64,000 nt of DNA from Pseudomonas phage SM1: the sequence record NC_041877.1, one strand, 5' to 3'. The position numbers and the translations under genes are program-made. Below are positions 6,398 through 59,678 of the stretch, one piece after another; position 1 is the first letter of the stretch; every line of letters begins with the position of its first letter. The notes under the pieces are model-generated. The model searched no databases and was not told the origin of the DNA. It saw only the letters and a list, made by a program, of their open reading frames with translations.

Positions 6398-6585
6398 ATA
6401 ATTTGCGTGAGCGTATTCGTAACGTGGTCAATCGTTACCGGGACGCCAGTAGCCGGCCCGACGTTATCGTCTTGCTCGCGGAGGCCGCAGTCGAGATCGA
6501 CAGCCTAACCGACATCATCGCTGCCTACGCTGAGAAAGAAGTGCAAGCGCTTGCACGGGCTAAGGACAAAGAGGAGTCGAAGTAG
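6394..6585 (+). CDS. hypothetical small protein
   Basis: 63-aa ORF with ATGA overlap to the upstream gene; contains one copy of the 14-bp palindrome (6542-6555). Confidence 0.4.
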   Translation: MNNLRERIRNVVNRYRDASSRPDVIVLLAEAAVEIDSLTDIIAAYAEKEVQALARAKDKEESK

Positions 6586-6588
6586 GGT

Positions 6589-7620
6589 ATGGATCGCGGA
6601 ACGATAAAAGAGGTCGTCCGCGATGTGTTCGGGCGTTCAACGGAAATGATCGACACTGGCGATTGGGTCAGTATGCGATGCCCGTTAGCGCCCTGGACAC
6701 ATGATAGCGGGTCGGACACGCACGCTTCTGCCGGGGTATCCGTGGTAGAGGACGGCACCAGTATTTTCAACTGCTTCACTTGCAAAAATACGGCACCGTT
6801 CCATGTGATGCTAACCCGGTACGCTGAGTTTACCGGGGAGGACCTGGACGACCTTATCGAGGAGCTGGAGGAGGGCGAGTTTCTGGGCCCACGAACCATA
6901 TCCAGCATGGATGCGTGGCTAACGGACAACCTCCAAGAAGTGCTAATGCCCATCAATGAGGGCATTTACATGGACCTATATGATTCTGCCGTTGGGCACC
7001 CATACCTGCGGCAGCGGGGTATATCTAACTCCACCGCCCGTAAACTGGAGCTATTGTTCGACCCCTCCGATAGCGAAGGCGAGCCTAGAATACTTTTCCC
7101 GGTACGGGGGCCGGGGGGAGAACTGTACGGGTTCAGCGGACGTGCTACGAGGGATACCGCCCGCCTCAAGGTGCGGGACTACCACGGTCTGGCCAAATCG
7201 CATTGCGTGCTCGGGGCCCATCTCGTAGGCCCTTCTGATGACGTGGTAGTCGTAGAGGGTTTAGTGGACTACGCGGTAGTTCACGACATGGGGGCTTGCG
7301 GCTGCGCGGTAATGCACTCGACCATGACCAAGTTCCAAGCCGCAATTGTGGCAGGGTTCGGCGCGCCAACCTATTTGTTTTACGACAACGACAGCGCGGG
7401 CCAAAAAGCGATCCCGATAGCAGCGAATCAGCTATGCCAGCATGTGAGCGTATTCCGACCGACCTACCCCAAAGTTTGGATACCTAACAGCGCAGAAAAA
7501 GAAGGCGGCCATTTCTTGAAAGACCCGGGAGAAATGACCGATGAAGAGTTTTGGGAGATGAAGAGAACCGCTAGGCTATGGGATAAACCAAACTGGCTTA
7601 AAAGCAGACGCAACTATTGA
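6589..7620 (+). CDS. DnaG-like DNA primase (zinc-binding plus TOPRIM domains)
   Basis: CHC2-type zinc motif CPLAPWTHDSG...FNCFTCKN; TOPRIM motifs VVVVEGLVDYAVVHDMG and LFYDNDSAGQKAI. Confidence 0.65.
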   Translation: MDRGTIKEVVRDVFGRSTEMIDTGDWVSMRCPLAPWTHDSGSDTHASAGVSVVEDGTSIFNCFTCKNTAPFHVMLTRYAEFTGEDLDDLIEELEEGEFLGPRTISSMDAWLTDNLQEVLMPINEGIYMDLYDSAVGHPYLRQRGISNSTARKLELLFDPSDSEGEPRILFPVRGPGGELYGFSGRATRDTARLKVRDYHGLAKSHCVLGAHLVGPSDDVVVVEGLVDYAVVHDMGACGCAVMHSTMTKFQAAIVAGFGAPTYLFYDNDSAGQKAIPIAANQLCQHVSVFRPTYPKVWIPNSAEKEGGHFLKDPGEMTDEEFWEMKRTARLWDKPNWLKSRRNY

Positions 7621-7645
7621 CATACGCAGGGCTATAGCCTAGTAT
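7617..7645 (+). promoter_or_regulatory. sigma70-like promoter candidate (TTGACA-17-TAGTAT)
   Basis: -35 at 7617-7622, 17-nt spacer, -10 at 7640-7645; lies very close to the 7655 start codon, so the leader would be very short. Confidence 0.35.
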
Positions 7646-7654
7646 GGTGAGCAG

Positions 7655-7990
7655 ATGACTACTGGTCATGTAGATGAACCGAACTACCTACTCCAGACCC
7701 TTTTGCCGTTACGCAACGGCCAGACTGCGAAGTTGGTACAGGTTACTAAATCCCGCCACGGTAAGTTGGCGGTAGAGCGGACGACTAATACTGGAATTCT
7801 TTTTGCCCCTGGTCAGCTTTATGGATTGGACCCGAGGGCCGTTGTGATTTCCCTCCTGGGGAGGGGTAGCTGTGTGATCTTCCCTGGATCACGTAAAGGA
7901 GCGGGCGACTTGGTTCGAGCTGGGGTAGCCCCATCGCTGGCCAAAGCCTTACTTGAAACATTGACTGAAGTGTACGGAGTGAATCGATGA
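7655..7990 (+). CDS. hypothetical protein
   Basis: 111-aa ORF downstream of the predicted promoter at 7617-7645. Confidence 0.45.
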   Translation: MTTGHVDEPNYLLQTLLPLRNGQTAKLVQVTKSRHGKLAVERTTNTGILFAPGQLYGLDPRAVVISLLGRGSCVIFPGSRKGAGDLVRAGVAPSLAKALLETLTEVYGVNR

Positions 7991-9204: not shown

Positions 9205-10941
9205 ATGCGCCCGGCTATCCTAGCGGGCGCCATGAAAATCCCCGTCGCTCGGATTAACGCAAAACTTGTCGAAAAGCATACTACCTACCTCTATAGACCA
9301 ATGGGGGCGGAGGATGATATCGAAGTTAAAGCGTTTTTCTACGACGGGGATTTTATATGTGTGCCCAGGCAGTATGGTCTTGCGCTATGCAATAAACTAG
9401 GCATTGAGTGGGAGGACCACACCTCATCCGGGGTACCTGTTTCTTTCCCTAAAGTACCGGTACCTCGCGAATACCAAATCCAGACCTTGGACGATATAGT
9501 TCAAGCCTGTGACAACTACTACGATTTTCTTTTCCGAGCGCACACGGGATGGGGCAAGACCATCGGCGCGCTTATCGTGGCCGCCCGTTTGGGTGTATCT
9601 ACCCTCATTATTGTCGATCAAGATAACTTGGCGGACCAATGGGTAGAGCGGCTCACTGACCCTAGCCTCTTCGGTCTTAACCCAGAGGATATAGGGCGAA
9701 TTCAGGGAAAAAAGTGTGACTACGAAGGCAAGCCCGTAACTATTGCGATGGTGCAAACGCTTGCACAAAAAAAATTCGATGAGGAGGTCTACCGCTACCA
9801 CGGTTTGGTAATATCGGATGAGGTCCATACTATTGGAGCCCCGACCTTTAGTCAGGTTCTGACTCAGTTCGCGGCTACATGGAGGATTGGGATATCCGCT
9901 ACTCCGAAACGCCGGGACGGTTTGCAGAAGGCTCTAGATCATAACCTGGGCAAGGTAAGGGTGGCCGCTGACAAAGAACACAAAGAGTCTGCGGTATACA
10001 TGATCTACCATGACACCGTTTATTCGTGGTATGGGAATGTGTCGCCGAAGGTTGGACGGATATTGACGGAAATCGCAGACGATGGTTTTCGAAATCTCAA
10101 GTTGGCTGACGCCGTAGTATGGTTGTACGAGACCGGTAGGGATGTGCTTGTCCTGGGCGACCGAATAGAGCAACTCAAGGAACTCGGTTGTTTGCTGAAA
10201 TACATGGGCGTGGAAGAAGATCGCATAGGACTTTATACTGGGGAAGACCCGGTATTCCGTCTTACCAAGGACCCACGTCCTGCGCGCCGCCCGAAAGGTT
10301 ATGTGCGAGATACGGAGTACACTCCTCTGAAATACGAGCGAGTCCGTAAGAAAGTGCCAAAGGCCCGCCTGAAGCAAGTCTTGCGGGAGTCTAAAATTAT
10401 CCTGGCTACGTATGGGATGTTTCAAAAAGGTGTGGATGAACCGAGGTTGGCTGGGGGCGCTGACGCCACGCCGCGAGGAACCTCTGAGCAGCAAATGGGT
10501 CGTATCCAGCGGGAGGTCGCCGGGAAGCATATGCCCATTTGGGTAACTATCGTGGACAGGCAGAACTACCGACTTCTGAACTCGTTCCTAGGGAGGGCTC
10601 AGGAGTATGTCAAAAACAACTCTCGCCTCTTCGAATGGGGCGAAGACGGGGGACTTACTGAATGCGAACCAAAGCGCCTATTCGCCGAGATACGAAACCG
10701 AATAAACGAACTGAAAGCAATGAGGATCGAAACGAACTCAGACGGTATAAATATGCTAACGACAGCACCCTGCGCGAAGACCAAAGGGCAAAAGCACGAG
10801 ACCGATATACGCGAGTGGGCCAAGCGCCTCTCCCGTCAGCGGTCCGAGGGCGAGGCACGCGAAGGGAAATCACCTTCGAAGGTGCGCCGAGGCCCACCAC
10901 CATCGAAACCTTCAGCATCGCCGAGGCTGCGCAGGCGTTAG
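9205..10941 (+). CDS. superfamily-2 DEXH-box DNA/RNA helicase
   Basis: Motif I FRAHTGWGKT, motif II ISDEVH, motif III ISATPKR, motif VI QQMGRIQRE; the low-complexity C-terminal tail may reflect a mis-called stop or an overlap with the next gene. Confidence 0.75.
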   Translation: MRPAILAGAMKIPVARINAKLVEKHTTYLYRPMGAEDDIEVKAFFYDGDFICVPRQYGLALCNKLGIEWEDHTSSGVPVSFPKVPVPREYQIQTLDDIVQACDNYYDFLFRAHTGWGKTIGALIVAARLGVSTLIIVDQDNLADQWVERLTDPSLFGLNPEDIGRIQGKKCDYEGKPVTIAMVQTLAQKKFDEEVYRYHGLVISDEVHTIGAPTFSQVLTQFAATWRIGISATPKRRDGLQKALDHNLGKVRVAADKEHKESAVYMIYHDTVYSWYGNVSPKVGRILTEIADDGFRNLKLADAVVWLYETGRDVLVLGDRIEQLKELGCLLKYMGVEEDRIGLYTGEDPVFRLTKDPRPARRPKGYVRDTEYTPLKYERVRKKVPKARLKQVLRESKIILATYGMFQKGVDEPRLAGGADATPRGTSEQQMGRIQREVAGKHMPIWVTIVDRQNYRLLNSFLGRAQEYVKNNSRLFEWGEDGGLTECEPKRLFAEIRNRINELKAMRIETNSDGINMLTTAPCAKTKGQKHETDIREWAKRLSRQRSEGEAREGKSPSKVRRGPPPSKPSASPRLRRR

Positions 10942-11535: not shown

Positions 11536-12738
11536 ATGGCTGTACAGCGGAGAGCGCCGAAGACCTCGCGTAAGATGACCAATGCGACCAGAGACAACCC
11601 CAGGACCGGAGCCGAGCTTACTGCGGCCCTGAAAGCCATCGAGAAGAAACTCGGAGAGCACGTAGTAACTCGGGCCTCTGACTTACGGACGGCCAAGCGA
11701 TTCCCGTCAGGGGTGTTCACCTTCGATGTGGCCACTTGCGGCGGCATACCGATTCAAGGTATGACAGAGATTCACGGTATACGCTCTAGCGGCAAAACGA
11801 CTTTTGCTTATCTGGTAATTGCCCAGGCCCAGATGCACTACCCGGATAAGGTATGTGTACTTGTCGATCAGGAGCGTAGTTTCGACTCGGTGTGGGCCGA
11901 GAAGTGTGGCGTCGATTTGGCCCGTCTGGAAGTTATCACCGCAGATACTGGCGAAGATGCGGTAGACCTCATGGAGGGTATGGTGCGGGTGGCTGAGGTG
12001 TGTTTGGTAGTTTTGGACTCCATCGGTACGCTTACTCCCCACAAGGAAATCGAAGGGGCTTCGGAGGACCAGCACGTTGGTATCCACGCCAAACTCTGTA
12101 CCCGTTTGGTGCGGAAACTTACCACGGCTTTGGGGGTTGAGAAATCGCGAGGACATGAGGTTTCAGTGCTCTGCATCAACCAGCAGCGAGCCGGCGTTGG
12201 CAAATGGGCCCCACCGGGCCAGGAAGCCGTTAGCCTGCCGGGCGGTAAAGCCCTGGAGCATGCTTTCCTCATAATCGCGAGGTTTAAAAATAAGGAAAAT
12301 ATGCGCAAGGACAGTGACGGATTCGACCTCCTTGATTACAACGAGCACGCCTTCACGCTTGAGAAGAATAAAATCTGTGCAGGTATGCGGCAGGGTGAAT
12401 ACCAGCTAATGCGTCGTGACCATGACGAGATCGAGGACCTCCGCGAGGGCATGGTAGACAATGTGCCGACTATGATCGCGTACGCTAAGAAGATGGGGGT
12501 ATATGCGGGGGCTGGCCGTAGCTGGACGTTGTATCTGCCGGACGAGGAGATCACGCTGGGTAGTGCCGACGAACATATCGCAAACATCTATGGCGATCCT
12601 CTGTTGTACTGGCGGTTCCGTAACCACCTAATAGCTCTGCATGCTGCAAAATTGCGGATGCCAGATTACTTCATCGAAAGTTTCTACGGTGACGACGCGC
12701 CGGGGATTGCCTTCTATGAATCGCTTGAGACGGAGTAG
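11536..12738 (+). CDS. RecA-like recombinase
   Basis: GIPIQGMTEIHGIRSSGKTTFAYLVIAQAQ closely matches the RecA P-loop region (G.ESSGKTTL.L..IAEAQ); Walker B CLVVLDSIG. Confidence 0.75.
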   Translation: MAVQRRAPKTSRKMTNATRDNPRTGAELTAALKAIEKKLGEHVVTRASDLRTAKRFPSGVFTFDVATCGGIPIQGMTEIHGIRSSGKTTFAYLVIAQAQMHYPDKVCVLVDQERSFDSVWAEKCGVDLARLEVITADTGEDAVDLMEGMVRVAEVCLVVLDSIGTLTPHKEIEGASEDQHVGIHAKLCTRLVRKLTTALGVEKSRGHEVSVLCINQQRAGVGKWAPPGQEAVSLPGGKALEHAFLIIARFKNKENMRKDSDGFDLLDYNEHAFTLEKNKICAGMRQGEYQLMRRDHDEIEDLREGMVDNVPTMIAYAKKMGVYAGAGRSWTLYLPDEEITLGSADEHIANIYGDPLLYWRFRNHLIALHAAKLRMPDYFIESFYGDDAPGIAFYESLETE

Positions 12739-14313: not shown

Positions 14314-14928
14314 ATGCGGATACGACGTACTAAGTCTGATGGTCAGTTGTTCGTTCTGGGCGTAGACCCGTCATTGGGGTCTACCGGCTACTGTTATGAG
14401 CTTGACGGTCGCCCGGTAGTGGGTAGGCTCTGTACTAAGTTTCGTGGAATGCAGAGGCTGGAACACCAGTTAAACCAGTTTCGTGGGCTGTTGGATACGG
14501 TGATGGAGGAGGCGACCGATTACCGGATAGTTTGCGTATACGAAGGGTATGCAATCGGCGCCAAGGGGGTTGGTCGTTGGGAATCCGCAGAGTTGGGCGG
14601 GCAATTCAAGCTGGAACTTTACAAACGCGGGATTCCGGTTATCCTAGTGCCTCCTACTACCCTAAAGCTGGTATTCACTGGCAAGGGGAACAGCAAGAAG
14701 CCTGCGATGAAAGCTGCCGCTATTGAGCACTTCGGTGTAGATAGCAGTTTGAATAACGATGAAGTAGACGCGTATGCTTTGTATCGATTGGGCCATGCGT
14801 TACTTCACGGGATCGGACCGGCGGAGTTTTTGCAACGTGCGTTACGGGCGAAAAGTAAGGTAACATTGCACCCAGGCAAGGGAGCCTTCGAGATGCAAGC
14901 GCTTGCACATTTGGCTTCTGTAGGTTGA
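14314..14928 (+). CDS. RuvC-like Holliday-junction resolvase
   Basis: RBS CAGGAG then ATG at 14314; LFVLGVDPSLGSTGYCY matches the RuvC N-terminal catalytic motif; downstream DEVDAYAL acidic motif. Confidence 0.65.
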   Translation: MRIRRTKSDGQLFVLGVDPSLGSTGYCYELDGRPVVGRLCTKFRGMQRLEHQLNQFRGLLDTVMEEATDYRIVCVYEGYAIGAKGVGRWESAELGGQFKLELYKRGIPVILVPPTTLKLVFTGKGNSKKPAMKAAAIEHFGVDSSLNNDEVDAYALYRLGHALLHGIGPAEFLQRALRAKSKVTLHPGKGAFEMQALAHLASVG

Positions 14929-16386: not shown

Positions 16387-16420
16387 GGGGCTCTCCATAG
16401 CGGGGAGCCCCTTTTTCTTT
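16387..16420 (+). terminator. rho-independent terminator
   Basis: GGGGCTCTCC-ATAGC-GGGGAGCCCC 10-bp stem followed by TTTTTCTTT. Confidence 0.7.
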
Positions 16421-16433
16421 GAGGAGAGAAAAC

Positions 16434-17144
16434 ATGGCTCTACAACGTAGCCGGCGCTCGGCGTCTTCGTCCAAAACCAACGCGAAGCCCCGACGTGCGG
16501 CTGAGCCCGTACGGATCAAAATCGACTATATCCCTATCGAGGAGATTGTCCCCTACGAGTTCAACGCCCGTAACAATGAGCAGGCCATCGAAGCGGTCAA
16601 AAAGTCTATTCAGCAATTTGGCTTTCTGAACCCGATTGTCCTCGACGAGAACAACGTGCTGGTCGCGGGCCATACGCGAACGGAAGCGGCCAAGCAACTA
16701 GGCTATATCGAGCTTCCGTTCGTAAGCGCAGCCCACCTTACTCCGGAGCAAGTACAGGCCTTCCGCCTCGTAGACAACAAAGTAGCTGAGATTGCTACAT
16801 GGGATGACGCACTCTTGGCGCAGGAAATGTATGCGATCAAGGAGATGTTTGATTTCACTGATTTCGGTTGGGACGCGGCAGAGATCGATTGCCTGGGCCA
16901 GCTTGTTTCTGACGATTGCCTACTCACTGCTGGTCTAGCTACGCCGGAGGAGGATGAAGAAGGTAGCGCCCGCCTTCCTGTGCGGCGTTCCCCGGCAACT
17001 GCGCGTATTGTGATCGGAGAGTTCGTCTTTTTCCGTCCGGCATCCTCAGTTCGCAATTTCCTCGACGGTCTGCGGCGTGCCCACAACGCCGACAGTGCGG
17101 CGATGGAAGAGGATATCGCTAACCGGCTTGGGCTACTGGATTAA
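16434..17144 (+). CDS. ParB-like nuclease-domain protein
   Basis: RBS GAGGAGAGAAAAC then ATG; IEEIVPYEFNARNN...NPIVLDENNVLVAGHTRTEAAKQLGY matches the ParB N-terminal (ParB/Srx) domain. Confidence 0.65.
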   Translation: MALQRSRRSASSSKTNAKPRRAAEPVRIKIDYIPIEEIVPYEFNARNNEQAIEAVKKSIQQFGFLNPIVLDENNVLVAGHTRTEAAKQLGYIELPFVSAAHLTPEQVQAFRLVDNKVAEIATWDDALLAQEMYAIKEMFDFTDFGWDAAEIDCLGQLVSDDCLLTAGLATPEEDEEGSARLPVRRSPATARIVIGEFVFFRPASSVRNFLDGLRRAHNADSAAMEEDIANRLGLLD

Positions 17145-17154
17145 GGAGCACCAA

Positions 17155-18711
17155 ATGGCACTTCGTCAGCGCCGCACCAGGGTGAGTGCAGCCGATAAAC
17201 TTACCTCGATTACTGTCGTCAATGTACCTACGGAGAACCACTCGCCCGACATCAAGAACCCGCGAAAGGCGGACCCTGCGCGTCTGGGCCTGCTTCGGTT
17301 GTCTATCGTCAAATTAGGGTTCCTGATGCCGATATTCGCGCGAGAACAGGACGGAACTTTGTTGTCTGGGCACCAGCGACAAAGGGTATGCCTGGAGGCG
17401 GGAATCCCCACCATGCCGACCGTGTACGTATCGCTCACGGAGCAGGAGATGATGGGTATCAACATACTCTTCAACCGCGTCACCAACGACTTCAGTGCTT
17501 TCGACACAGGCAGCACCGGAGTGGCCCGGATCAACATGAAACAAACACTGGAAGCGCTGGAGTCTTTGCCCGACTGTGACTTCAGTAACTTCTATGCAAA
17601 CGCTTGCAAAAACGAACCGATCAAAGTATTCGCGGCGGGTTGCGTAGACCAGTACGATAAAAAGGCCATTGTCACCGCCGGGGCGTTCGTTCGAATGGGG
17701 GTCAAAATCCCACTCGTAGTCAGTGAGTCTGGGGAGGTAGTAAATGGGGTCCACCGCCTATTCGCCGCTATTGAGAAGGGTTTGGATCAGTGGCCTGTAG
17801 TCCGTATCCCGGATCGCATCGCCGAGGTCGCTAAGATTGTTCTCAACTACCTGAGCATGGACTTCCACATCGACGAGGACTTCAAGGACCTTCTCCGTGG
17901 TGGTGCCTTCCGGCGAGTTTCAAATAACCGAGGTTTGGTGCCGAAGAGTTTTCGTTTCTGGGCCAATGGCGAACGATCTCTACTTGACAGGGATAGCTAC
18001 AGCACGGAGTTTTGGCTACGTTTCCGTGAGATACATGGTAACTCCATTCTCGATTTCGGAGCTGGGCTTTGCCGTGTAGCCCCCTACCTGCGGACCAAGG
18101 GATTCGAGGCAATGGATTTCGAGCCCTATCGCGTCGATCCCGTACTTAACGAAGCAGAGCCTAGCCCCGACTATAGCCGGTCCATGGCGAAGCAATTCCT
18201 GTCCGCTATCGCTGATCCTAGGCACAAATTCGATTCTATTTTTATGTCGGCAGTGATGAATTCGATTCCTTTCCCGGAGGATCGATTGAAGGTATTGGTT
18301 ATTGTGCATGCACTCTGTCGGCTGGATACTTCGGTTTACGGAACGTGCCGAGATATTTCCGATTTCTCCTACGAGTATGGCGGGGTAAGGAACGGTAACT
18401 ACTTCGTGATGGACGGAGAGCCGGGCATACGGTTGGGTGACATCAACTCTAGGCCTAAAATTCAGAAATTCATGACGCAGGACGAAGCTCGTAGCTACTT
18501 TGACCGCTTCTGGAACAAAGTCGAATTTTGGGAGGGTGGCAACGTTTTCTTCTTCCGTTTGTCTGCTCCCAAAGCACCGAATCTGAAAGCTCTGGGCCAG
18601 AGTTTGGATTTCGAATTTGGCGATCTGCCTTTTCTTGACGGCTCGCGTATGGGTTTAGCTAAAGAGGCTCGTGCGGCTTTCGCAAAGCGATTGGGGCGGG
18701 CGATTCCCTAG
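17155..18711 (+). CDS. ParB-like domain(s) fused to a class-I SAM-dependent methyltransferase domain
   Basis: AGGAG RBS then ATG 17155; ParB-like segments LSGHQRQRVCLEAGIPTMPTVYV and VVNGVHRLFAAIEKGLDQWPVV; MTase motif I ILDFGAGLCRVAPYL; no DPPY/NPPY motif seen. Confidence 0.6.
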   Translation: MALRQRRTRVSAADKLTSITVVNVPTENHSPDIKNPRKADPARLGLLRLSIVKLGFLMPIFAREQDGTLLSGHQRQRVCLEAGIPTMPTVYVSLTEQEMMGINILFNRVTNDFSAFDTGSTGVARINMKQTLEALESLPDCDFSNFYANACKNEPIKVFAAGCVDQYDKKAIVTAGAFVRMGVKIPLVVSESGEVVNGVHRLFAAIEKGLDQWPVVRIPDRIAEVAKIVLNYLSMDFHIDEDFKDLLRGGAFRRVSNNRGLVPKSFRFWANGERSLLDRDSYSTEFWLRFREIHGNSILDFGAGLCRVAPYLRTKGFEAMDFEPYRVDPVLNEAEPSPDYSRSMAKQFLSAIADPRHKFDSIFMSAVMNSIPFPEDRLKVLVIVHALCRLDTSVYGTCRDISDFSYEYGGVRNGNYFVMDGEPGIRLGDINSRPKIQKFMTQDEARSYFDRFWNKVEFWEGGNVFFFRLSAPKAPNLKALGQSLDFEFGDLPFLDGSRMGLAKEARAAFAKRLGRAIP

Positions 18712-18777
18712 CCACTGTAGCTAAGGCGTAGAGACAAGCTGTATAGTGCAAGCGTTTGCATTCAAGGAGCGGCGATC

Positions 18778-19515: not shown

Positions 19516-20354
19516 CAGATCGGACCGAAGATGGGCGTCGCCCAGTTGCGCGCCGCAATTTGCGCCGGGTGCGGGGTGGGGCACGCTTCGCCTCCAACTC
19601 TGGCAGTAGTAACTTGCGAACTCCACGAGATTTCGATGAGCAGGAGCACGATGACGTAGATGACGCCATTGATCCCCTCGCCGTACATCGCGGTGTAGTA
19701 TCCCGTGCTCGTGCAGATGATGCCGAGCCTGGGACGGATGTCTCTCCGGCTCAGCGGATGTTTGATGTGCAGCGAAATGCCCCAGCCAGTGTTTCACGGG
19801 AATACCGCCTGAATCTAGTTGGCCGGTTGTTGATGCGCAAGATTCCATTGGATCGGATCGCCCAACAACTGAACGTGTCTGTATCGACGGTAGAGAAAGA
19901 TAGGGCGGCCTGGAAAAAGATGCTAGCTGAACGGGCCCGCCAATTCGATGTGAACGAGTACATCGGCATTCAGTCGGAGTTCTACGACGAGGTGAGCGGT
20001 CAGGCAATGCAGATCGCCTCTATGGCAGCGGGTGAGAATGCCGTACCTACGGCCATGCGTTTGGCTGCGATGCGGACTGCGCTGGCTGGCCAAGCCGACA
20101 AGACTCGTACACTACAGTCTGCCGGCGTATTTGAGGCCGCGCGCTTCCGCCGAACTACGGACGGCTCTGCCATGAGCGATGTACAGATGCTTATGGCTCG
20201 GACTATGGAAGCTCTGGAAGACCTGATGCAGGCTGACGAGCCTCCACCTCCGCCGCCGCGCGGTGGGCCCCCGACAACCCGCCGACGTGACGGAAGCGGT
20301 TTCGACGATCTGACGTTGGATGACCCGGAGGAAGGGGAGGTTATGGAGCTATGA
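19512..20354 (+). CDS. putative terminase small subunit (HTH-containing); alternatively a sigma-region-4-like regulator
   Basis: Lies immediately upstream of and overlaps (ATGA) the large terminase; HTH-like LDRIAQQLNVSVSTVEKDRAAWKKM. Confidence 0.35.
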   Translation: MTDRTEDGRRPVARRNLRRVRGGARFASNSGSSNLRTPRDFDEQEHDDVDDAIDPLAVHRGVVSRARADDAEPGTDVSPAQRMFDVQRNAPASVSREYRLNLVGRLLMRKIPLDRIAQQLNVSVSTVEKDRAAWKKMLAERARQFDVNEYIGIQSEFYDEVSGQAMQIASMAAGENAVPTAMRLAAMRTALAGQADKTRTLQSAGVFEAARFRRTTDGSAMSDVQMLMARTMEALEDLMQADEPPPPPPRGGPPTTRRRDGSGFDDLTLDDPEEGEVMEL

Positions 20355-22282: not shown

Positions 22283-22306
22283 TGCAAGCGTTTGCACGGA
22301 GATACT

Positions 22307-43367: not shown

Positions 43368-43400
43368 TGCAAGCGCTTGCACCTATATAGGAGAATCATT

Positions 43401-45680: not shown

Positions 45681-45733
45681 CAGGGTCATGTCCAGGGTCA
45701 TGCTCTTTTCATGATCAGGGTCATGATCAGGGT
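45681..45733 (+). repeat. CAGGGTCATG direct repeats (three full copies plus one partial) inside a 520-bp ORF-free region
   Basis: CAGGGTCATG at 45681, 45693 and 45716; CAGGGT at 45728. Confidence 0.7.
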
Positions 45734-45959
45734 TTCTGAACTAATGCGAAAAATCGCTTCAGGGTATGGGAAATTTTCAAATTCAATTAGTGTCCAAGCC
45801 AGCTTTCCAGCAAGCTTCCATCGCGATATAGGCAGGACACTATCATGAGTCACTGTAGGATGATGGCGCATCAGTTTCAGGATAGAATCCAAAAAACGCA
45901 CGGTTTAACATTCTCATGAGCTGCGGGCGCATAAGAGCCCCGAAATAGGTTAAGGAACC

Positions 45960-49485: not shown

Positions 49486-49795
49486 CTGGAGCAATCGCAT
49501 GGACCTTAATATCAAACATGTCCCGGCCACCTGCGCTATCGTCTACATACCGCAGGCGCCGGTCTCTTTCTTCGCGCTTTATGAGGCCTGAATATGGACC
49601 GTGAGCTGGAAATGCAAACGCTTGCACGCCCGCTCTCGCGCATAAATTTTTTGTTCTTTGCCGCCGGGGTTCGCATGTCGAATGCCCGGCTGCGGCGCGA
49701 AAAGCGGCTACTCGATAGCCTTGTTGAACGCTGTGCAGACTTGGACCTGTATTACGCAGGTCTGGTAAGTCAATTCCCGTATAGGAGCCCTAGCA

Positions 49796-50104
49796 ATGCC
49801 AAAAGCAGTACGACCCGCGAAAGAAACTGAAGCAGAGAAGCTCAAGCGGGAAACCCTGGACCAGTTCCTCGCCGCCGTCGAGGAGACGGGTATCGCCGTA
49901 GTTGTTATCCCGGAATATGCCCGGCGGCACCATGCGGCTATTTTCAATCGAGACTATTCGGCATTACTGAGCGTGGACGCTCGGGTATTCCAGTGGCTCG
50001 ATGAGCTTGTAGAGCGGGGCATGGTGCATAGGGGTCCGTACGGGCATGATATAGCCTATTACTCCCCGCTGGGTACTAGGTCTTTCGGGCCCAACGCTGT
50101 TTAG
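49796..50104 (+). CDS. hypothetical protein
   Basis: 102 aa; the upstream palindrome-embedded ORF 49594 was rejected. Confidence 0.4.
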   Translation: MPKAVRPAKETEAEKLKRETLDQFLAAVEETGIAVVVIPEYARRHHAAIFNRDYSALLSVDARVFQWLDELVERGMVHRGPYGHDIAYYSPLGTRSFGPNAV

Positions 50105-50126
50105 TTGCTTTGGTTTATAGGACTCC

Positions 50127-50936
50127 ATGGAGAATATAGAAATGTCTGAGAATGAAAGACCGAAAGTAGATATCACGGCCAAAATGCGCCAGGAGATCAG
50201 CCTGTTCGTAGCCAAAAGGCGGGTGTTGGATACTCCGGCTTCCGAGTGGTTCTCCAGCGGAAGTTTGGTGCAGGTTTATTTGCGGGCCGGTAGGTACGCG
50301 CACGACCGGCAGACCGATAGTTTCGAGTACGCAATCGGGCTGTCAAATATCTCGGTAAACCCAAAGTTTCATTGCCGAGGCGTGTTCTCGCGAGTTCTCG
50401 AACATCTGGAGGCCATGGCGAAAGAGCTGAACTACAGCTACGTGCAGGTTGAGCAAGTAATGCATCCCTGGCTTGGTGCGCGCCTCGAAGCTCGCGGGTA
50501 CAAGATACTGCACGCGGGTGAGCTGGCCCCGATTTATCGGAAACCTGTAGCTTGGGATGGCCGTATAGACAGTGCCGAGCTATCGATCTACACCTACCCA
50601 ATACCCAACGGGGAAGGTAGCTGGGCCCGTGCTATGGCTACTAAAACAGGGGTAGCGGTTTGTCATAAACCGTCAGGGATCGAGGTGCGATCAAGTCTTC
50701 AGTTCTCCGTACATGCGAACCGGCATATGGCTTTCTCGGTTTTGCATAACGGCCTGGGGCGGTCGGATGCGGTAGTATTGGAGCAACAATTGAAGAAGGC
50801 TTGCGACCTCCTCCATAACGCAACGCTTACGCTCCATTCCGGCGAGAAACGCGCAGACATCACCGAGTTTCTCAACGAAGTCCAGTACACCGGAACCCGA
50901 GGATTGGCGCAGCGGGACGAAGAAGAGTCCGAATAG
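50127..50936 (+). CDS. hypothetical protein, possibly a GNAT-like acyltransferase
   Basis: Weak GNAT motif-A-like NISVNPKFHCRGVFSRVLEHL. Confidence 0.35.
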   Translation: MENIEMSENERPKVDITAKMRQEISLFVAKRRVLDTPASEWFSSGSLVQVYLRAGRYAHDRQTDSFEYAIGLSNISVNPKFHCRGVFSRVLEHLEAMAKELNYSYVQVEQVMHPWLGARLEARGYKILHAGELAPIYRKPVAWDGRIDSAELSIYTYPIPNGEGSWARAMATKTGVAVCHKPSGIEVRSSLQFSVHANRHMAFSVLHNGLGRSDAVVLEQQLKKACDLLHNATLTLHSGEKRADITEFLNEVQYTGTRGLAQRDEEESE

Positions 50937-50938
50937 CC

Positions 50939-51652
50939 ATGAGCGATGCACTCTTTGTCACCCTCTTAGGCGCTAGCCTGCTGGTCTACGCATTTTACCA
51001 ACCCGTACGTAGGCTGTGCTTGATACTTCGGGCTATGCATCGCTACCGGCTAGGGCTATCTCGGGCTAGCGAGATCGTCGAGGCAGAACCTAGCGGGTCT
51101 TTGCCGGCCCGAATGTCCGCAGTGCGTGACGTTGCAATGTCGAACGAGGGGTACAGGAAAGACGACTGGGCAATGCGCGGTATGCTCGACTACTGTTGTA
51201 CGTACGAGAGAGAGGACGCTATCTCAGTCTCCCGAGAAGGTGAAACCCTATCGGATTTCCAGTTGAGTCAGTATTCCAGTGACCCAACCATGGAGTGCAT
51301 CACACGCCTCGCGAACGCCTGCATAGCTGAAGTGGAGGAGAGCCATACGCGGCCATGGCGCGTCCCGAGTGCGAGGCTGGAGGTAGAGAGATTCATCGCC
51401 GGAACTCAAAGTTTTGTCTACGAAAAACTCAATCGCGTAGAGCTGGCCGTACACGCGGAGGCAGAAATAGACAGAGTAGTAGCCGCTTGGCGAGGGCGGT
51501 TAGCGAGCCAGGCCAGGGCCGCATCAACCATCTCGATACCGAATGAAGAGACCCCGCAGACCGTACCCGCCTCTGCGATAGAGCCGATCAGGGTTCTAGC
51601 TCGGGTTCCCCGCCGCAAGCGGAGAGGCCCGGATCAATGTAAGGAGAATTGA
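50939..51652 (+). CDS. hypothetical protein
   Basis: 237 aa; hydrophobic N-terminus. Confidence 0.45.
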   Translation: MSDALFVTLLGASLLVYAFYQPVRRLCLILRAMHRYRLGLSRASEIVEAEPSGSLPARMSAVRDVAMSNEGYRKDDWAMRGMLDYCCTYEREDAISVSREGETLSDFQLSQYSSDPTMECITRLANACIAEVEESHTRPWRVPSARLEVERFIAGTQSFVYEKLNRVELAVHAEAEIDRVVAAWRGRLASQARAASTISIPNEETPQTVPASAIEPIRVLARVPRRKRRGPDQCKEN

Positions 51653-51653: not shown

Positions 51654-51920
51654 ATGCAAACGCTTGCACCGAATGAAGTGACTTTCGAGGTGTATCAAGA
51701 GAACGGGCTGACCGTATGCATGATCCGGTCCGACGATACGGCCTACGAAGTTGGGTTCGCTGTCGCCCCAGGCTTCGTATGCACAGACTGCTTGGTGTAC
51801 GACCGCTACAAGTTTGTCGTCGGGCACGAATCGCGCTATGGGCAGAAATCCATTACCAAAACAATAACTGAACTAGGCTGTCTGACAGGTATGGACGGCG
51901 CTAATCGCATACCTGTGTAG
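51654..51920 (+). CDS. hypothetical small protein (start may be GTG 51678)
   Basis: The annotated ATG lies inside a palindrome copy; an in-frame GTG sits 24 nt downstream. Confidence 0.35.
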   Translation: MQTLAPNEVTFEVYQENGLTVCMIRSDDTAYEVGFAVAPGFVCTDCLVYDRYKFVVGHESRYGQKSITKTITELGCLTGMDGANRIPV

Positions 51921-54491: not shown

Positions 54492-54797
54492 ATGGAGAAA
54501 GCCAATATCAGCCGGGCTCATAAGCATCTGGAGTCCTTACTGAAGGAGCAGAAGGAATGGGTAGCCTACGCTCAGCAGGTTCTCAATACGTGGCATAAAG
54601 AGACGGATTTCCTAGTAACAGCTATCGCGACTGGTCTAAAGGACGCGTACGAGCGTGGGGCAAAAGGTCTACCGCCGCCAACGGCAGCGGGCGCAGGGGA
54701 CGTGGCGAAGCCGGCAAGAGTACGACCGGCGAAACCCACCATCTCCAAAAACGAGAGCAAATCTCCTGCGATACGCAGGGTTCGGAGGGGCACGTAA
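54492..54797 (+). CDS. hypothetical protein
   Basis: 101 aa. Confidence 0.4.
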   Translation: MEKANISRAHKHLESLLKEQKEWVAYAQQVLNTWHKETDFLVTAIATGLKDAYERGAKGLPPPTAAGAGDVAKPARVRPAKPTISKNESKSPAIRRVRRGT

Positions 54798-55210
54798 TGC
54801 TAGGGGTGGAGGAGGTAAAAATACTTCCGCCTAACTTACTTGTCTCCCACTACCTGCTAGCCTCGTATTGTTACTACTGGCAGGACGAATCACCTATGAC
54901 GGATGCAGCGTATGATTTAATGTGCAAACGCTTGCACGCGGCGTGGGATCAAATAGACCACCAACACAAGCATCTAGTAGATCGGGAGGCGCTGTCCGCT
55001 GGTACTTGCCTATTGCCGGCGTGCGACTACCCGAACGTGGTCTACAACGGTTGGGAGTCGTATTTGCGTAATTGTCTATCCGGTAGGGCCCGCGTCGATC
55101 TGCACACCCTCTACGCCGGTAGATTACCTACCCCTCTAGCACCTACAATGGCACCAAAGCCAGTGTGCCGCCGGATATCCACGACCCGAGTAAGACGGCG
55201 CTCTAGGTGA
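54797..55210 (+). CDS. hypothetical protein
   Basis: 137 aa; contains a palindrome copy in frame. Confidence 0.4.
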   Translation: MLGVEEVKILPPNLLVSHYLLASYCYYWQDESPMTDAAYDLMCKRLHAAWDQIDHQHKHLVDREALSAGTCLLPACDYPNVVYNGWESYLRNCLSGRARVDLHTLYAGRLPTPLAPTMAPKPVCRRISTTRVRRRSR

Positions 55211-55703: not shown

Positions 55704-56855
55704 ATGCGGATACTCAATCCTACTGAAACCCGTCTATCCCCGCATTTCATGCTTTCGGATTTTATGGGATGCCACTCCGTTTACTCGAAAGGGTATCGCA
55801 ATGAGTTCGAGAGCGGCGATGCGCTGGTAGATGTTCGTCTGGAGAACGCGAAAGCACTTTGCGAGTTTGCGTTAGAGCCCGTCTTAGGGACAGCCGGTCC
55901 CATCTCGATCTCCTATGGCTATATCTCACTTGAGCTTTCTGAGCGGATAGTCAGGTATCAAGACCCCAGGAAGCCTAGCCACCACATGTGGAACCTCGGG
56001 GCAGCCGCAGATATCTGCGTGCATGAATGGGTGCAAACGCTTGCACCTGGGGCGCAAGACAGAACCGGCGCACCGCTCGAATTCGCTCTACTGCATATGG
56101 CGGACTTGCCACTTTCTAGGCTCATCACCTATAGCGAATCGCCGTTCTTCTGCGTCGCGGTATCGCAGCAGGAGGTGCTCAGTGGCCTGCCGCGTAAGAT
56201 GTGGTACGAGAACGAATACGGTGGCGTGCCCGGGGCTAAACCGCATTTTCGGAAGTTGGCTTCCGATCCCGCCCGAGAGCTGAGACTGCACGACATCACG
56301 CAAGACGGCTTTGAGCATGGGTGGCAGGGGGCGGGCTTCCCTACGTACCACGGCGGCGGCAAACGCCAGTATCAACATTTTCGAGTAAGCGCTTATACGA
56401 TGCTCAGCGATTGGCTCTTTGATGAGCTGTTTGTCAGGGTCGGCATAAGCAATGAACCGCAGATGGGTAACCCGCTAACCAGGGAAGCTTTCTACCTCGC
56501 GGGATACGCGTACGACTTACTCATAAAAGTTTTGGGCGTTCCGCGTCTGTCCATTGTGAGCGCCTACACCAACCCCAGAAGTAGCAATAAATGGATAGAA
56601 GGGCGCGATTGGGCCGGCAGCTCGATTGTCTTCGAGTTGGTACCGCCGGAGTACCTCAGCCCAGAAGACGCCCAGGCCTCTTGCCTACAGCATCCTAGCA
56701 TCTCGGAAATTATGAACATAGAAGTAGACGAAGATCGTCTAATAGTTATAGTGGAGCGAGAAAATGCGAAAAACTCCAAGGGATTTAAGGCAAGCACCTC
56801 CGCCGTGCTTGCACATGCAAGAGCCAGTTCCGGGCAAAGAATACGTCGTAGTTAG
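55704..56855 (+). CDS. protein with N-terminal peptidase M15A-like (zinc D,D/L,D-peptidase) domain; possible cell-wall hydrolase
   Basis: HFMLSDFMGCHS and SHHMWNLGAAADI resemble the M15A/YcbK H..G.A.D zinc-binding motifs. Confidence 0.4.
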   Translation: MRILNPTETRLSPHFMLSDFMGCHSVYSKGYRNEFESGDALVDVRLENAKALCEFALEPVLGTAGPISISYGYISLELSERIVRYQDPRKPSHHMWNLGAAADICVHEWVQTLAPGAQDRTGAPLEFALLHMADLPLSRLITYSESPFFCVAVSQQEVLSGLPRKMWYENEYGGVPGAKPHFRKLASDPARELRLHDITQDGFEHGWQGAGFPTYHGGGKRQYQHFRVSAYTMLSDWLFDELFVRVGISNEPQMGNPLTREAFYLAGYAYDLLIKVLGVPRLSIVSAYTNPRSSNKWIEGRDWAGSSIVFELVPPEYLSPEDAQASCLQHPSISEIMNIEVDEDRLIVIVERENAKNSKGFKASTSAVLAHARASSGQRIRRS

Positions 56856-57514: not shown

Positions 57515-57934
57515 ATGATTAACAAGGAACGGAAACATTTTGGATTAGTCGGTCTGTCTAGGGCCCCCAGAAAACGCCACTCGGTAATCAGCAACACCTG
57601 CTTGGTGCAGGATGGGGAGACTTCCGGATATTGCTACATAAAGTTCAGTGAGAGTTTCGTGACTTTTGTAGGTAAAAAACTGCATCGCGGGGTAGCCGTT
57701 TTCGATCCAGCTTTTGTGGAGGTCGTAAAGGTAGGGGAGTCGTGGGAGGTATGGGCCTGCTATCATAGGGACGCACATCGAACGATGTTATGGGTGACGG
57801 ATAGACAGCCGTCGTGGATTGAAACAGTCAAAAAGGTAAGAGCAAATGGCAACGTCCAGTCGCATCCGACCGAAAAGATCGGCTCCGGTAGGGCAGGAAG
57901 CTCAAGAGAAGAAAACCACTCTAGCGAGACCTAG
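57515..57934 (+). CDS. hypothetical protein
   Basis: 139 aa; overlaps the next ORF by about 90 nt. Confidence 0.35.
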   Translation: MINKERKHFGLVGLSRAPRKRHSVISNTCLVQDGETSGYCYIKFSESFVTFVGKKLHRGVAVFDPAFVEVVKVGESWEVWACYHRDAHRTMLWVTDRQPSWIETVKKVRANGNVQSHPTEKIGSGRAGSSREENHSSET

Positions 57935-58259
57935 AGTCCGCGTAAGACCGGCGCGGGGGGTAGAGGAGCCCGTAAAACCGGTAGAGTTGATCCCCGTACG
58001 CACCGAAACACCACCGGAGCGCGAGGTAGTTCATTCTTGGTCGGACCGTGTTGATTATGATGCGATCATCCAGAACTACAAGTCTAAGGCCACCAGTTAC
58101 AAAACTGCGATACGCTCCCATTGTGTGGATTGTATGGGCGGCCTGGTACAGTCGATCAAGGATTGCACGTCCTACGACTGCTCGTTGTACCCCTTCCGGA
58201 TGGGCGAGAACCCGTACGACGCCCGGACCGTTAAGGCCAGGGAAAAGAAAGAGGGCTGA
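57846..58259 (+). CDS. hypothetical Cys-rich (zinc-ribbon-like) protein
   Basis: CVDCMGG...CTSYDC motif; basic N-terminus. Confidence 0.4.
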   Translation: MATSSRIRPKRSAPVGQEAQEKKTTLARPRVRVRPARGVEEPVKPVELIPVRTETPPEREVVHSWSDRVDYDAIIQNYKSKATSYKTAIRSHCVDCMGGLVQSIKDCTSYDCSLYPFRMGENPYDARTVKAREKKEG

Positions 58260-58263
58260 CAGC

Positions 58264-58917
58264 ATGCAGATAGTAGGACTTACGGGTCTTCCTCGCAGCG
58301 GGAAAGACACTCTGGCCAATCTAATGGTGGCAAGGCATAGCTGGATTAGGATGGCCTACGCCGAGCCGCTGTACGAGGAGGTAGCGGAAGCCTTCGGGGT
58401 CACGGTGGTTCAGCTACTTAGCAACGAGTGGAAGACACAGCCTCAAGCGCGCTTGGTAATCGACCGCTGCACTGACAAGGAATTTTTCGATGTATTCGAA
58501 AAAGCCATGGATGGTGATTGTCTCTACCGGTACAACACCTCTCGAACCATTTTGCAGTTGTGGGGGACTGAGTACCGGCGCCTGTCTTGCCGCCAATCAT
58601 ACTGGACCGAGAAGATGGAGCAGCGCATCATGGAGGCCTATCACAACGGGCACTCAAGGATCGTCGTGTCAGATGTGCGGGTCTTTCTCGACGGGCAGGG
58701 CCAACCCGTTTACGATGAGTTTGAATGTCTGGATTCCTTGGCATTCGAGCTGGGAGGTTCTATGAAGTTGGTAGAAGTCCTCCGGGAGGGTACTACGAGT
58801 AACGGCCATAGCAGTGATTCGCGGTTCCCTGACCATCTGATATACGCCAAACTCAACAACAACCGGACGCCGGAAGAGTTATTCTTCCAGGCTGGAAAAA
58901 TGGGAATAGTCACATGA
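58264..58917 (+). CDS. dNMP-kinase-like P-loop nucleotide kinase
   Basis: MQIVGLTGLPRSGKDTLANLM parallels the T4 gp1 dNMP kinase N-terminus (MKLIFLSGVKRSGKDTTADFI). Confidence 0.6.
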   Translation: MQIVGLTGLPRSGKDTLANLMVARHSWIRMAYAEPLYEEVAEAFGVTVVQLLSNEWKTQPQARLVIDRCTDKEFFDVFEKAMDGDCLYRYNTSRTILQLWGTEYRRLSCRQSYWTEKMEQRIMEAYHNGHSRIVVSDVRVFLDGQGQPVYDEFECLDSLAFELGGSMKLVEVLREGTTSNGHSSDSRFPDHLIYAKLNNNRTPEELFFQAGKMGIVT

Positions 58918-59660
58918 CCATTGCAAAAGATAGCAACGCCGACGCCGCGTTTTCTCAAATGTTTCCCAAGGGTTTGGACATGTGCGAGCTGGATGCGCGC
59001 ATGCACCAGCTTTTTGGCAACCGCGAAGGCAATAAGTTCTCCCCGAGCTGGGCCGACCTACAGCGGTATACTGACATTCTGAAATCCGAAGTTGAGGAAC
59101 TGGAGAAAGGAGTAAACGAGCAGGATTTCGTCGAAGTTCTCGATGGCCTTGGTGATATTCTGACCGTTCTCCACGGCTTGGCCAACTTGGCTGGCGTCGA
59201 TATTCGAGAAGTATGGATGCGGGTGTTCGAGTCCAATCTCACTAAATTCTGCCGTAACGCCGGTGAGATGGAGGCCACCTTGGAAAAATATAAAAACCAG
59301 GGCGTATCAGTAGAGGCGGGCGGCGTATTCCCCTTTGCCTACGTCACAACTTCGGAAGCTCAGGTAGTAAACGGGCGTCAGGTGCCGAAGGGCAAGTTTC
59401 TCAAGTGCGTACGCTTCACGGAGCCGGATTTTTCGGACCTCTTATCAAGTGAGTACAAAGGCACCCGTAGCCTTGTAGGTATGTTGGATAGTTTCGATGT
59501 ACCGCTACAGCACCGGCTTCGGAGTATGCTGACGGGAGCCAAACCACGACAGGCCTCCGAGCGTATCCTTCTACAGCTCGAAAGCCAAGGTATGCTGAGC
59601 CCTGTAAGCCAGCCGTCGAACGCGAAGCCGACCCCCAGGGTCCGAGATATCCTGAGATAG
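58914..59660 (+). CDS. MazG-like nucleotide pyrophosphohydrolase
   Basis: LKSEVEELEKG...EVLDGLGDILTVLHGLA matches the MazG EExxE / E..D..GD metal-binding helices. Confidence 0.6.
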   Translation: MTIAKDSNADAAFSQMFPKGLDMCELDARMHQLFGNREGNKFSPSWADLQRYTDILKSEVEELEKGVNEQDFVEVLDGLGDILTVLHGLANLAGVDIREVWMRVFESNLTKFCRNAGEMEATLEKYKNQGVSVEAGGVFPFAYVTTSEAQVVNGRQVPKGKFLKCVRFTEPDFSDLLSSEYKGTRSLVGMLDSFDVPLQHRLRSMLTGAKPRQASERILLQLESQGMLSPVSQPSNAKPTPRVRDILR

Positions 59661-59678
59661 TGCAAGCGTTTGCACAGA

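Follow-up and report, generated by a model that had tools for sequence, protein, structure and literature searches.

An evenly spaced palindrome, TGCAA-N4-TTGCA, recurs across a large clade of phages related to Pseudomonas phage SM1 and may be read by a phage-encoded MerR-like protein

A 14-bp palindrome, TGCAARCGYTTGCA, is dispersed through the 64,000-nucleotide stretch of Pseudomonas phage SM1 DNA analysed here (record NC_041877.1; the whole stretch is referred to as the window), and we find that this motif is the hallmark of a large clade of phages with genomes of ~80–105 kb. The window holds 20 exact copies, against 0.00 expected from 100 dinucleotide shuffles, and four copies with one mismatch, giving a total of 24 against 0.73 expected at two mismatches or fewer. 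The dispersed palindrome reported in a first-pass annotation of this DNA is therefore real. Eighteen of the 21 positions listed there carry exact copies; those at 44102 and 45435 are one-mismatch copies, the copy given as 56022 lies at 56032, and three copies were missing from the list, an exact one at 433 and two with one mismatch at 59956 and 62660 (Table 1). The complete genome of phage PA_L9 contains 28 exact and four one-mismatch copies, eight of them in the structural-gene region beyond the window. Since the 3′-flanking base of the window copies is C in 20 of 24 and the 5′-flanking base is G in 13, A in nine and C in none, the full form is (G/A)TGCAA-RCGY-TTGCAC. On balance, we consider it somewhat probable that these are docking sites in double-stranded DNA for a phage-encoded dimeric protein, likeliest a MerR-like one, which would act genome-wide as an operator-binding or roadblock factor and/or as a chromosome organiser.

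Over its first 20 kb, the window is 99.4–99.7% identical to the P. aeruginosa phages UF_RH6, PA_L9, PaMx31 and FBPa45 and to the BHU phages. These near-identical phages belong to the genus Samunavirus, with genomes of ~94 kb and annotated genes that lie nearly all on the + strand. The context of the window copies was mapped through the PA_L9 annotation. The product names in the GenBank record of UF_RH6 (OQ383211) appear to be out of register with its genes, 'putative phosphoesterase' being assigned to the DNA polymerase gene and 'minor tail protein' to the terminase region, and these names were not used in the analysis.

Using one exact form to scan IMG/VR, we recovered contigs with GC contents of 44–61% and several copies each, whose portal, capsid, DNA polymerase, helicases and recombinase are only 25–39% identical to the window proteins. 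The nearest GenBank relatives by DNA polymerase (36–38% identity) each carry their own version of the motif: TGCAATCGATTGCA in Rhodobacter phage RcDurkin (21 exact copies, ~50 including variants), TTGCAAACGTTTGCAA in Agrobacterium phage JP1 (23 exact copies, plus nine of the CG-to-CA form TGCAAACATTTGCA) and TTGCAAC(C/T)GGTTGCAA in Aeromonas phage HJ05 (~25 copies). A further set of 32 IMG/VR loci was gathered through the large terminase (TerL); they span TerL identities of 26–77% and GC contents of 34–61%, and many are near-duplicates. The core TGCAA-N4-TTGCA is present in 27 of the 32, mostly at 0.2–0.3 copies/kb and with TCAA, TCGA or TTGA centres. Among the five loci without it, three have only 26–27% TerL identity and two (L142 and L145) carry TGAAA-N4-TTTCA. 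Overall, relatives with 25–77% protein identity have 25–50 copies of the core per genome, with lineage-specific centres and flanks, and some have lost the central CG (centres TCAA, ACAT and ATAT) and kept the half-sites. Because centres and flanks differ between lineages while the half-sites recur, the invariant part of the motif is the pair of half-sites TGCAA and TTGCA, 4 bp apart, and the 4-bp centre and the flanking base make up lineage 'dialects'. Individual positions are conserved as well. The copy equivalent to window 18747, ~3.2–3.5 kb upstream of the TerL end, is kept at 53–72% TerL identity (L134–L136, L140 and L157), usually in the order stop codon, motif, 1–2 nt, GGAG, 6–8 nt, ATG, and the helicase-gene copies of the window (9752) and of RcDurkin share an alignment column. 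The first-pass annotation had named absence of the motif from related genomes as a ground for refuting its reading; the outcome was the opposite, with the motif found across the whole clade. Searches with phage names and with literal motif strings found no published description of the repeat: the Samunavirus and RcF-cluster papers are silent and the strings matched no phage paper. What is new here is that the motif recurs clade-wide in dialects, is evenly spaced, is free of a pairing constraint and has no −10 element at a fixed distance.

Thirteen of the window copies are intergenic, two lie on or beside a start codon (49613 and 51655) and nine are inside genes. The earlier count of 15 intergenic copies and six in genes was thus close, and the copies it assigned to the helicase, ParB-N/methyltransferase and RuvC-like genes do map there. 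Intergenic copies make up 17 of 32 in PA_L9 and 20 of 43 in RcDurkin, against a non-coding share of ~8%; because the PA_L9 genome is 91.5% coding, this enrichment is strong. Nine of the 17 intergenic PA_L9 copies start 0–1 nt past a stop codon and most end 10–30 nt before the next start, and six window copies begin directly (0 nt) after a stop codon. Within genes, copies in PA_L9 and RcDurkin are preferentially read as xTG-CAA-NCG-NTT-GCA, giving the peptide Q-[AST]-[LIF]-A. The open reading frame (ORF) starts of the MQ(A/T)LA type that ATG-containing copies create had been taken as spurious, and not all of them are: an AGGAG lies 8 nt upstream of the ATG at 51654, at which the PA_L9 annotation starts the gene. 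This gene and the one at PA_L9 29893 look unrelated, and both begin MQTLAPN, their first codons being the motif plus a CCGAA flank. The idea that RTG-CAA copies start micro-ORFs (peptides MQALAPI and MQALAPT, each followed by a stop) was dropped, as reading lengths differ between copies.

Copies occur every ~3 kb in the window phage, and their spacing is more even than chance would give. The coefficient of variation of the gaps between copies is 0.49–0.60 in PA_L9, RcDurkin and JP1, compared to ~0.96 (0.95–0.99) at random (P ≤ 0.0004). Spacing was still more even under a null model that respects gene boundaries by placing intergenic copies only there (P ≤ 0.001). Long genes, such as the tape-measure gene, hold internal copies.

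As RNA, the motif folds at −3.5 to −5.6 kcal/mol (z −1.1 to −2.8). The 6-bp stem with tetraloop described in the first-pass annotation is correct, yet weak (−5.6 kcal/mol, z = −1.6), and the common variants TACAA (RcDurkin) and TGAAA (HJ05) are unfolded, at 0 kcal/mol. Across lineages, stem pair 3–12 is C-G in 201 copies, A-T (both halves altered) in 38 and a non-pairing hybrid, A-G or C-T, in 60, so that base pairing is not maintained by compensatory change. The halves assort independently in genomes that have both states at this pair, and in the window the centre letters obey no pairing rule, G..T, A..C and G..C being about equally frequent. No Rfam family matches the motif, and no window copy is itself directly followed by a T-run. 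Since the halves vary independently, hybrids are common and frequent variants are unfolded, selection acts on the sequence of each half-site, as it would for a protein reading duplex DNA, and not on a hairpin. Conservation of the half-sites over deep divergence, together with their independent variation, supports as a class the earlier suggestion of an operator for a dimeric phage regulator.

Which protein might read the sites? Only ~20 proteins are common to PA_L9, RcDurkin and JP1, and phmmer overlooked one more, a MerR-type winged-helix protein (Table 1). It has full-length homologues at 62–65% identity, its counterparts in the GenBank relatives are RcDurkin gp76, JP1_076 and HJ05_82, and its gene occupies the syntenic position in each TerL-relative locus long enough to include it and is present in 4/4 complete genomes. 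An AlphaFold (AF2) model, with a predicted local distance difference test score (pLDDT) of 69, shows a winged helix with two long helices after it, and the top PDB fold matches of the model are without exception DNA-binding domains of the MerR family (MtaN, BldC, RacA, NmlR and CadR; probabilities 0.9–0.99). In the presumed recognition helix, the residues S-T-F-R-R-W contrast with L-G-F-[KR]-R-W within the clade. The gene overlaps the helicase 3′ end (window 10662–10941) by ~280 nt in a different frame; PA_L9 annotates only the last 62 codons of the ORF, and in the relative L131 (62% identity) the helicase and MerR-like genes do not overlap. In the RcDurkin and JP1-like lineages a motif copy occupies homologous codons 18–23 of the MerR-like gene (VQSIAK and LQTFAK), and such a copy in the gene's own 5′ end is compatible with autoregulation. 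The protein is the helix-turn-helix (HTH) candidate at 10662 of the first-pass annotation, which had also proposed the ribbon-helix-helix (Arc-like) protein at 52610 and the HTH protein at 53051; homologues of these two are not detectable in RcDurkin or JP1. On circumstantial evidence from sequence and predicted fold, the MerR-like protein is the best candidate reader; we infer both that it binds the motif and what binding would do.

ParB-N-domain proteins, present in all three compared lineages and located upstream of TerL in RcDurkin and JP1, or any other core protein, remain alternative candidates. Two ParB-N-domain proteins are encoded in the window, at about 16419–17144 and at 17077–18711. 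In the proteins of this type GHTR stands in place of the GERRxRA box, and only the N domain aligns to Noc. A LacI-type phage reader was rejected, as a hidden Markov model of the LacI, PurR, CytR and CcpA DNA-binding heads had no match in the PA_L9 and RcDurkin proteomes. An AlpA-like antiterminator is at most a distant analogy: AlpA works as a monomer on a 6-bp element beside a sigma-dependent pause and has another domain order. PHROGs and Pfam gave no DNA-binding assignment for other conserved small proteins, and back-translated patterns in IMG/VR yielded no confirmed HTH locus; relatives came from the protein database and from TerL-anchored loci. A PDB sequence search found no match for a conserved 433-aa protein or for a 137-aa zinc-ribbon protein. 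The latter (window 57846–58259) has a CxxC-x10-CxxxxC ribbon followed by PLYPFRMGxNP, is likewise without a Pfam or PHROG match, and has conserved counterparts, including paralogues, ahead of the portal gene in two relatives (RcDurkin gp27 and gp28; JP1 011 and 012).

We propose that the site comprises the half-sites TGCAA and TTGCA with 4 bp between, a separation that would place the hexamers one helical turn apart, and that a phage-encoded protein would read it, either as a dimer or through two neighbouring subunits. Sites would be maintained at roughly regular 2–3 kb intervals genome-wide, preferentially in the short non-coding gap that separates a stop codon from the following Shine-Dalgarno sequence; in genes they would be tolerated where the encoded peptide, Q-[AST]-[LIF]-A, does no harm. 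Once made, the MerR-like protein of the replication module would occupy all sites, acting at some as an operator-bound regulator and at others as a roadblock to elongation or as an anchor that organises the chromosome. Operator action is suggested by a few copies at ~+2 to +16 or at ~−50/−72 of sigma70-like promoters. In HJ05, seven promoter-like sites have a copy at ~−50 or −72, against 1.6 expected; PA_L9 copy 49707 lies at ~+2 to +16 of TTGCCT-17-TATAAT, ahead of a replication-gene block; and window copy 44102 lies, as had been reported, upstream of a sigma70-like promoter, 30 nt before its −35 element. These copies form an operator-like minority. The reported overlap of copy 34795 with a TATAAT is also there, though an acceptable −35 was not found.

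Several observations weigh against this explanation. In PA_L9, RcDurkin and JP1 there is no significant excess of copies near promoters, so that for most copies a promoter to be regulated is not evident. Protein and motif are linked by co-occurrence, which all core clade genes share; the Foldseek E-values are weak (0.025–0.3), the confidence of the model is moderate, and the Samunavirus MerR-like gene itself is without a motif copy. Conservation of the helicase-gene position is partly due to the conserved peptide [VI]Q[ST]LA. Degenerate centres are strand-biased (JP1, ACAT nine versus ATGT none; HJ05, CTGG 11 versus CCAG three), and among the TerL relatives, many of which are near-duplicates, TCAA centres outnumber TTGA, the direction of the bias varying by lineage. 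A perfectly symmetric dimer does not account for such a bias. A general polarity of the half-sites was rejected because the varying half differs between genomes: the left in HJ05 and RcDurkin, the right in JP1 and neither in PA_L9. Finally, a stoperator-type immunity function is unlikely, since the phages are reported lytic. A broader version of the docking-site explanation, which we put forward tentatively and think rather doubtful as a whole, is that of a large, previously unnoticed clade of ~80–105 kb siphoviruses of Proteobacteria that carry TGCAA-N4-TTGCA as an evenly spaced 'bar code', with a clade-specific MerR-like reader. Its function would be to organise or coat the whole genome, as a RacA/ParB-like means of handling the chromosome in a virulent phage, or to gate elongation genome-wide, and site dialects and reader would co-evolve in the manner of uptake-sequence dialects.

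The main rival to the docking-site explanation sees the sites as a 'self tag' of the genome that serves DNA transactions (packaging, Chi-like recombination, nuclease protection, nicking, or coating and condensation), read by some other phage protein, such as the ParB-N-domain proteins beside the terminase or the helicase/Cas4-like nuclease/UvsX-like recombination set. Even spacing over the whole genome, also within long genes such as the tape-measure gene, would suit a tag, as would the lack of a nearby promoter at most copies, the T4-like recombination gene set of the clade and the occurrence of ParB-N-domain proteins in each compared lineage; frame-biased in-gene copies and dialects recall uptake sequences and Chi. 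Chi and the FtsK-orienting sequences KOPS, however, are asymmetric and oriented, and the motif is palindromic. The ParB-like proteins carry GHTR and not the clamp-type CTP-binding box, with no HTH shown, the RcDurkin left end, described as a pac end, is without the motif (the first copy is at 1152), and computation gave no link of the sites to ends, nicks or packaging. We regard a self tag as possible, if unlikely. That a host protein reads the sites, either a LacI/GalR-type repressor or integration host factor (IHF), with the copies serving as decoys or recruiters of host factors, seems improbable to us. The Samunavirus and JP1 forms do fit TGnAAnCGnTTnCA, the JP1 GCAAACGTTTGC is the PurR/MalR box core and occurs in the literature only as a PurR/MalR-type operator, the sites contain CAANNNNTTG in the case of IHF, and dialects differ among phages of different hosts. 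A central CG is a hallmark of LacI-family sites, yet it is dispensable in the relatives with TCAA, ACAT and ATAT centres; the PA_L9 and RcDurkin proteomes encode no LacI-type HTH, and titration needs no even spacing. Moreover, the half-sites are the same in Pseudomonas, Rhodobacter, Agrobacterium and Aeromonas phages and in contigs of 34–61% GC, which favours a reader carried along by the phage itself.

An RNA or single-stranded DNA hairpin, acting as a stabiliser, an RNase site, a terminator component or a translational operator beside the Shine-Dalgarno sequence, is very improbable, and the mRNA hairpin of the first-pass annotation fares poorly on the folding and pairing evidence above: a weak stem, lost in frequent variants, and hybrids as common as matched double changes. 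The palindrome can form a 5–6 bp stem with a tetraloop, its usual layout places it between a stop codon and GGAG, several copies adjoin intrinsic terminators, and the L145 and L142 lineages altered both halves jointly to TGAAA/TTTCA. Against this, sequence beyond pairing is kept at 25–77% protein identity, about half of the copies are in genes, Rfam has no match, and terminators are found in ~27% of motif-bearing and 29% of other intergenic regions, in a count made by eye. That the motif serves middle or late transcription as a promoter, or by standing in for a −35, ranks among the least credible readings. TTGCAA is similar to TTGACA, RcDurkin has TAnnnT 16–18 nt past a half-site in 10 cases against ~1.6 expected, mostly in its early right end, and one RcDurkin copy lies between TTGACT and TATCAA. 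No such −10 was seen in PA_L9, JP1 or HJ05, and in the absence of a fixed-distance −10 element we conclude that the motif is not a promoter; association with promoters is significant only in HJ05, and a −10 past the half-site only in RcDurkin. The phage-specific promoter element suggested in the first-pass annotation is further disfavoured because many copies lie 10–14 nt from the next ATG, with the Shine-Dalgarno sequence alone between, and because a third to half of the copies are in genes. A phage RNA polymerase or sigma factor was found neither among ~25 scanned proteins, most ORFs being unscanned, nor among RcDurkin and JP1 product names, and early promoters seem to be separate ~70-nt modules. 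Equally far-fetched in our estimate is the view that the motif has no cis function and is either a mini-palindrome that is selfish or spreads passively, or a recombination 'linker' that joins gene modules. Variants within a genome share orientation and sometimes longer flanks (two JP1 copies share TGCAAACATTTGCAACGGAGCAACGA), and copies lie at gene boundaries; on the other hand, spacing is even, positions are kept across 53–72% TerL identity, every lineage has retained the motif over a very long time, and no transposase or RAYT-like gene was seen.

Among known systems, the closest analogues are RacA with its ram sites, the Cluster A stoperators, and KorB operators together with phiC31 conserved inverted repeats (CIRs), and the motif fails defining features of each. 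RacA, which acts in Bacillus subtilis sporulation, reads a 14-bp palindrome with TG/CA ends, ram (TGACGCCGGCGTCA), at 25 dispersed regions (PMC4914108). The phage motif likewise begins with TG, ends with CA and occurs in tens of dispersed copies, and RacA, a MerR-like winged helix with a coiled coil, is among the best fold matches of the modelled candidate. In contrast, ram sites are clustered round the bacterial origin for polar anchoring and the phage sites are even genome-wide, the half-site sequences are unlike, and the phage reader is a candidate only. Stoperators of Cluster A mycobacteriophages (L5 and Bxb1) are sites at which one phage protein blocks elongating RNA polymerase (PMC9283540, PMC6550527). 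Like the present motif, they are dozens of near-identical 13–14 bp sites spread genome-wide, mostly in short intergenic gaps by stop or start codons. They differ in being asymmetric and oriented with transcription, whereas the phage motif is palindromic with strand bias in degenerate centres only, and in serving a monomeric immunity repressor of temperate phages, whereas the candidate here is MerR-type and the phages are reported lytic (UF_RH6) or without evidence of lysogeny (the RcF cluster). RcDurkin and JP1 product names include no integrase; those of PA_L9 and UF_RH6 are too sparse or unreliable to tell.

The KorB operator OB of the IncP plasmid RK2 and the phiC31 CIR are palindromic operators of 13–17 bp in 12–18 copies, some at promoters and others distant or by terminators; KorB is a ParB-family CTP clamp, and the phiC31 repressor comes from a temperate Streptomyces phage. 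The likeness is that of one palindromic operator in many copies, at or away from promoters and terminators, but the phage motif is 2–4 times as numerous, regularly spaced and conserved clade-wide. ParB-parS, Noc-NBS and KorB-OB also share with it a 14–16 bp palindrome in multiple copies. The resemblance to LacI/GalR operators (PurR box, cre, CytR half-site), which lies in the fit of the Samunavirus and JP1 forms noted above, is probably convergent geometry, because no LacI-type head was found in the PA_L9 or RcDurkin proteomes and the central CG is not invariant. Uptake sequences (USS/DUS) and Chi are asymmetric elements of bacterial chromosomes, read by uptake receptors or by RecBCD/AddAB; over-representation, even spacing, a preferred in-gene frame and lineage 'dialects' are shared with the phage motif, whereas their asymmetry and orientation are not.

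If one protein does read 30–50 evenly spaced sites, it would be a master handle on how Samunavirus phages work, and these are in therapeutic use against P. aeruginosa (e.g. PA_L9 and UF_RH6); the same handle would extend to a broad clade of phages that has been little studied. In metagenomes, the motif can serve as a simple marker by which clade members are recognised, and its dialects offer a natural experiment on how a DNA site co-evolves with its reader. Copies in coding sequence, with their occasional use as start codons, affect gene calling in these genomes.

Table 1. Motif copies, the candidate reader and landmark genes in the window (positions counted from the first letter of the window)
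Feature	Position	Strand	Context or basis
Motif copy TGCAAGCGTTTGCA	433–446		Within 369-aa ORF (5–1114); PA_L9 55679, frame 2
Motif copy TGCAAGCGCTTGCA	6542–6555		30 nt ahead of stop of 63-aa ORF (6394–6585)
Motif copy TGCAAACGCTTGCA	9752–9765		In SF2 helicase gene, codes VQTLA; RcDurkin copy at same alignment column
Motif copy	14894–14907		In RuvC-like gene, 21 nt ahead of stop
Motif copy	17595–17608		In ParB-N/methyltransferase gene (17077–18711)
Motif copy	18747–18760		Intergenic; next ATG 17 nt on
Motif copy	22283–22296		Intergenic; abuts TerL stop codon; then cGGAGatact-ATG
Motif copy	24718–24731		Intergenic; past terminator-like hairpin, upstream of tRNA/tmRNA region; PA_L9 reads ACGT
Motif copy	30264–30277		Intergenic; abuts stop codon
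Motif copy	34795–34808		Intergenic; overlaps TATAAT; upstream of early-gene leader ACCCAGAGGGG
Motif copy	36480–36493		Intergenic; 10 nt past stop, next ATG 30 nt on
Motif copy	39687–39700		Intergenic; next ATG 24 nt on
Motif copy	40883–40896		Intergenic; abuts stop codon
Motif copy	42370–42383		Intergenic; 4 nt upstream of intrinsic terminator (42388–42409)
Motif copy	43368–43381		Intergenic; abuts stop codon; next ATG 19 nt on
One-mismatch copy TGCAAGCGCTTGCC	44102–44115		Intergenic; centre ~−72 of promoter-like TTGACC-17-TATTAT (44146–44174)
One-mismatch copy CGCAAGCGCTTGCA	45435–45448		Intergenic; abuts stop codon; then terminator-like hairpin
Motif copy	49613–49626		5′ end of small gene (49594–49830)
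Motif copy	51655–51668		Provides codons 1–5 (MQTLA) of gene 51654–51920; good Shine-Dalgarno
Motif copy	54923–54936		In gene 54797–55210
Motif copy	56032–56045		In gene 55704–56855
Motif copy	59661–59674		Intergenic; abuts stop codon; then terminator hairpin and T-run
One-mismatch copy TGCAAACCTTTGCA	59956–59969		In gene
One-mismatch copy TGCAATCGCTTGCA	62660–62673		In gene 62337–63719
Candidate reader, MerR-type winged-helix protein, 169 aa	10662–11171	+	PF13411 (MerR_1) 22.4 bits; core clade gene
DnaB-like helicase	1684–2961		PHROG scan
DNA polymerase	2952–5870		PHROG scan
SF2 helicase	9205–10941		PHROG scan
UvsX-like recombinase	11536–12738		PHROG scan
ParB-N/methyltransferase protein	17077–18711		PHROG scan
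Large terminase (TerL)	20351–22282		PHROG scan
Portal	60069–61736		PHROG scan

The early region of the window has further repeated features. The leader ACCCAGAGGGG is found just ahead of early-gene starts at 34820, 35164, 35877, 38756, 41657 and 44210 (each +10 nt), and leaders of this type account for six of the seven matches to the degenerate ACCCAKRGGGR, with 0.3 expected. They sit in ~70-nt intergenic modules with a TCGCTGTA-like start and a TATAAT-like box; these modules are probably early promoters with their 5′ untranslated regions, separate from the palindrome. Two long non-coding stretches of the early region, 42266–43121 and 45435–45959, each open with a motif copy and a terminator hairpin. 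The former is rich in TATATAG/TATAGG-like short repeats and could be an origin or another regulatory hub. Other short repeats occur in the relatives: GTATATAC (28 copies) and CGATATCG (15 copies) in JP1, CCAGCTGG (17 copies) in HJ05 and GGACAGTAAATG (seven copies) in RcDurkin, where non-coding DNA at 87.4–88.0 kb also contains the tandem half-sites GATTGCAAG.

A permuted (two-piece type) transfer-messenger RNA (tmRNA) lies at window 24768–25270, with Rfam RF04321 matching at 24880–25179 (118.6 bits), a beta_tmRNA match at 24828–25219 and an ARAGORN tag of ANDTSFDVRLAA followed by a stop; tRNA-Arg(TCT) is at 24768–24839 and motif copy 24718 lies just upstream. A trio of genes is found clade-wide outside the window, coding for a 574-aa AAA-ATPase and, ~1.5 kb downstream, adjacent DUF1257 and DUF2997 proteins (L002:3046–3632; PA_L9 49776–51500). 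In PA_L9, the AAA-ATPase gene has a good sigma70-like promoter upstream, with a motif copy at the start site.

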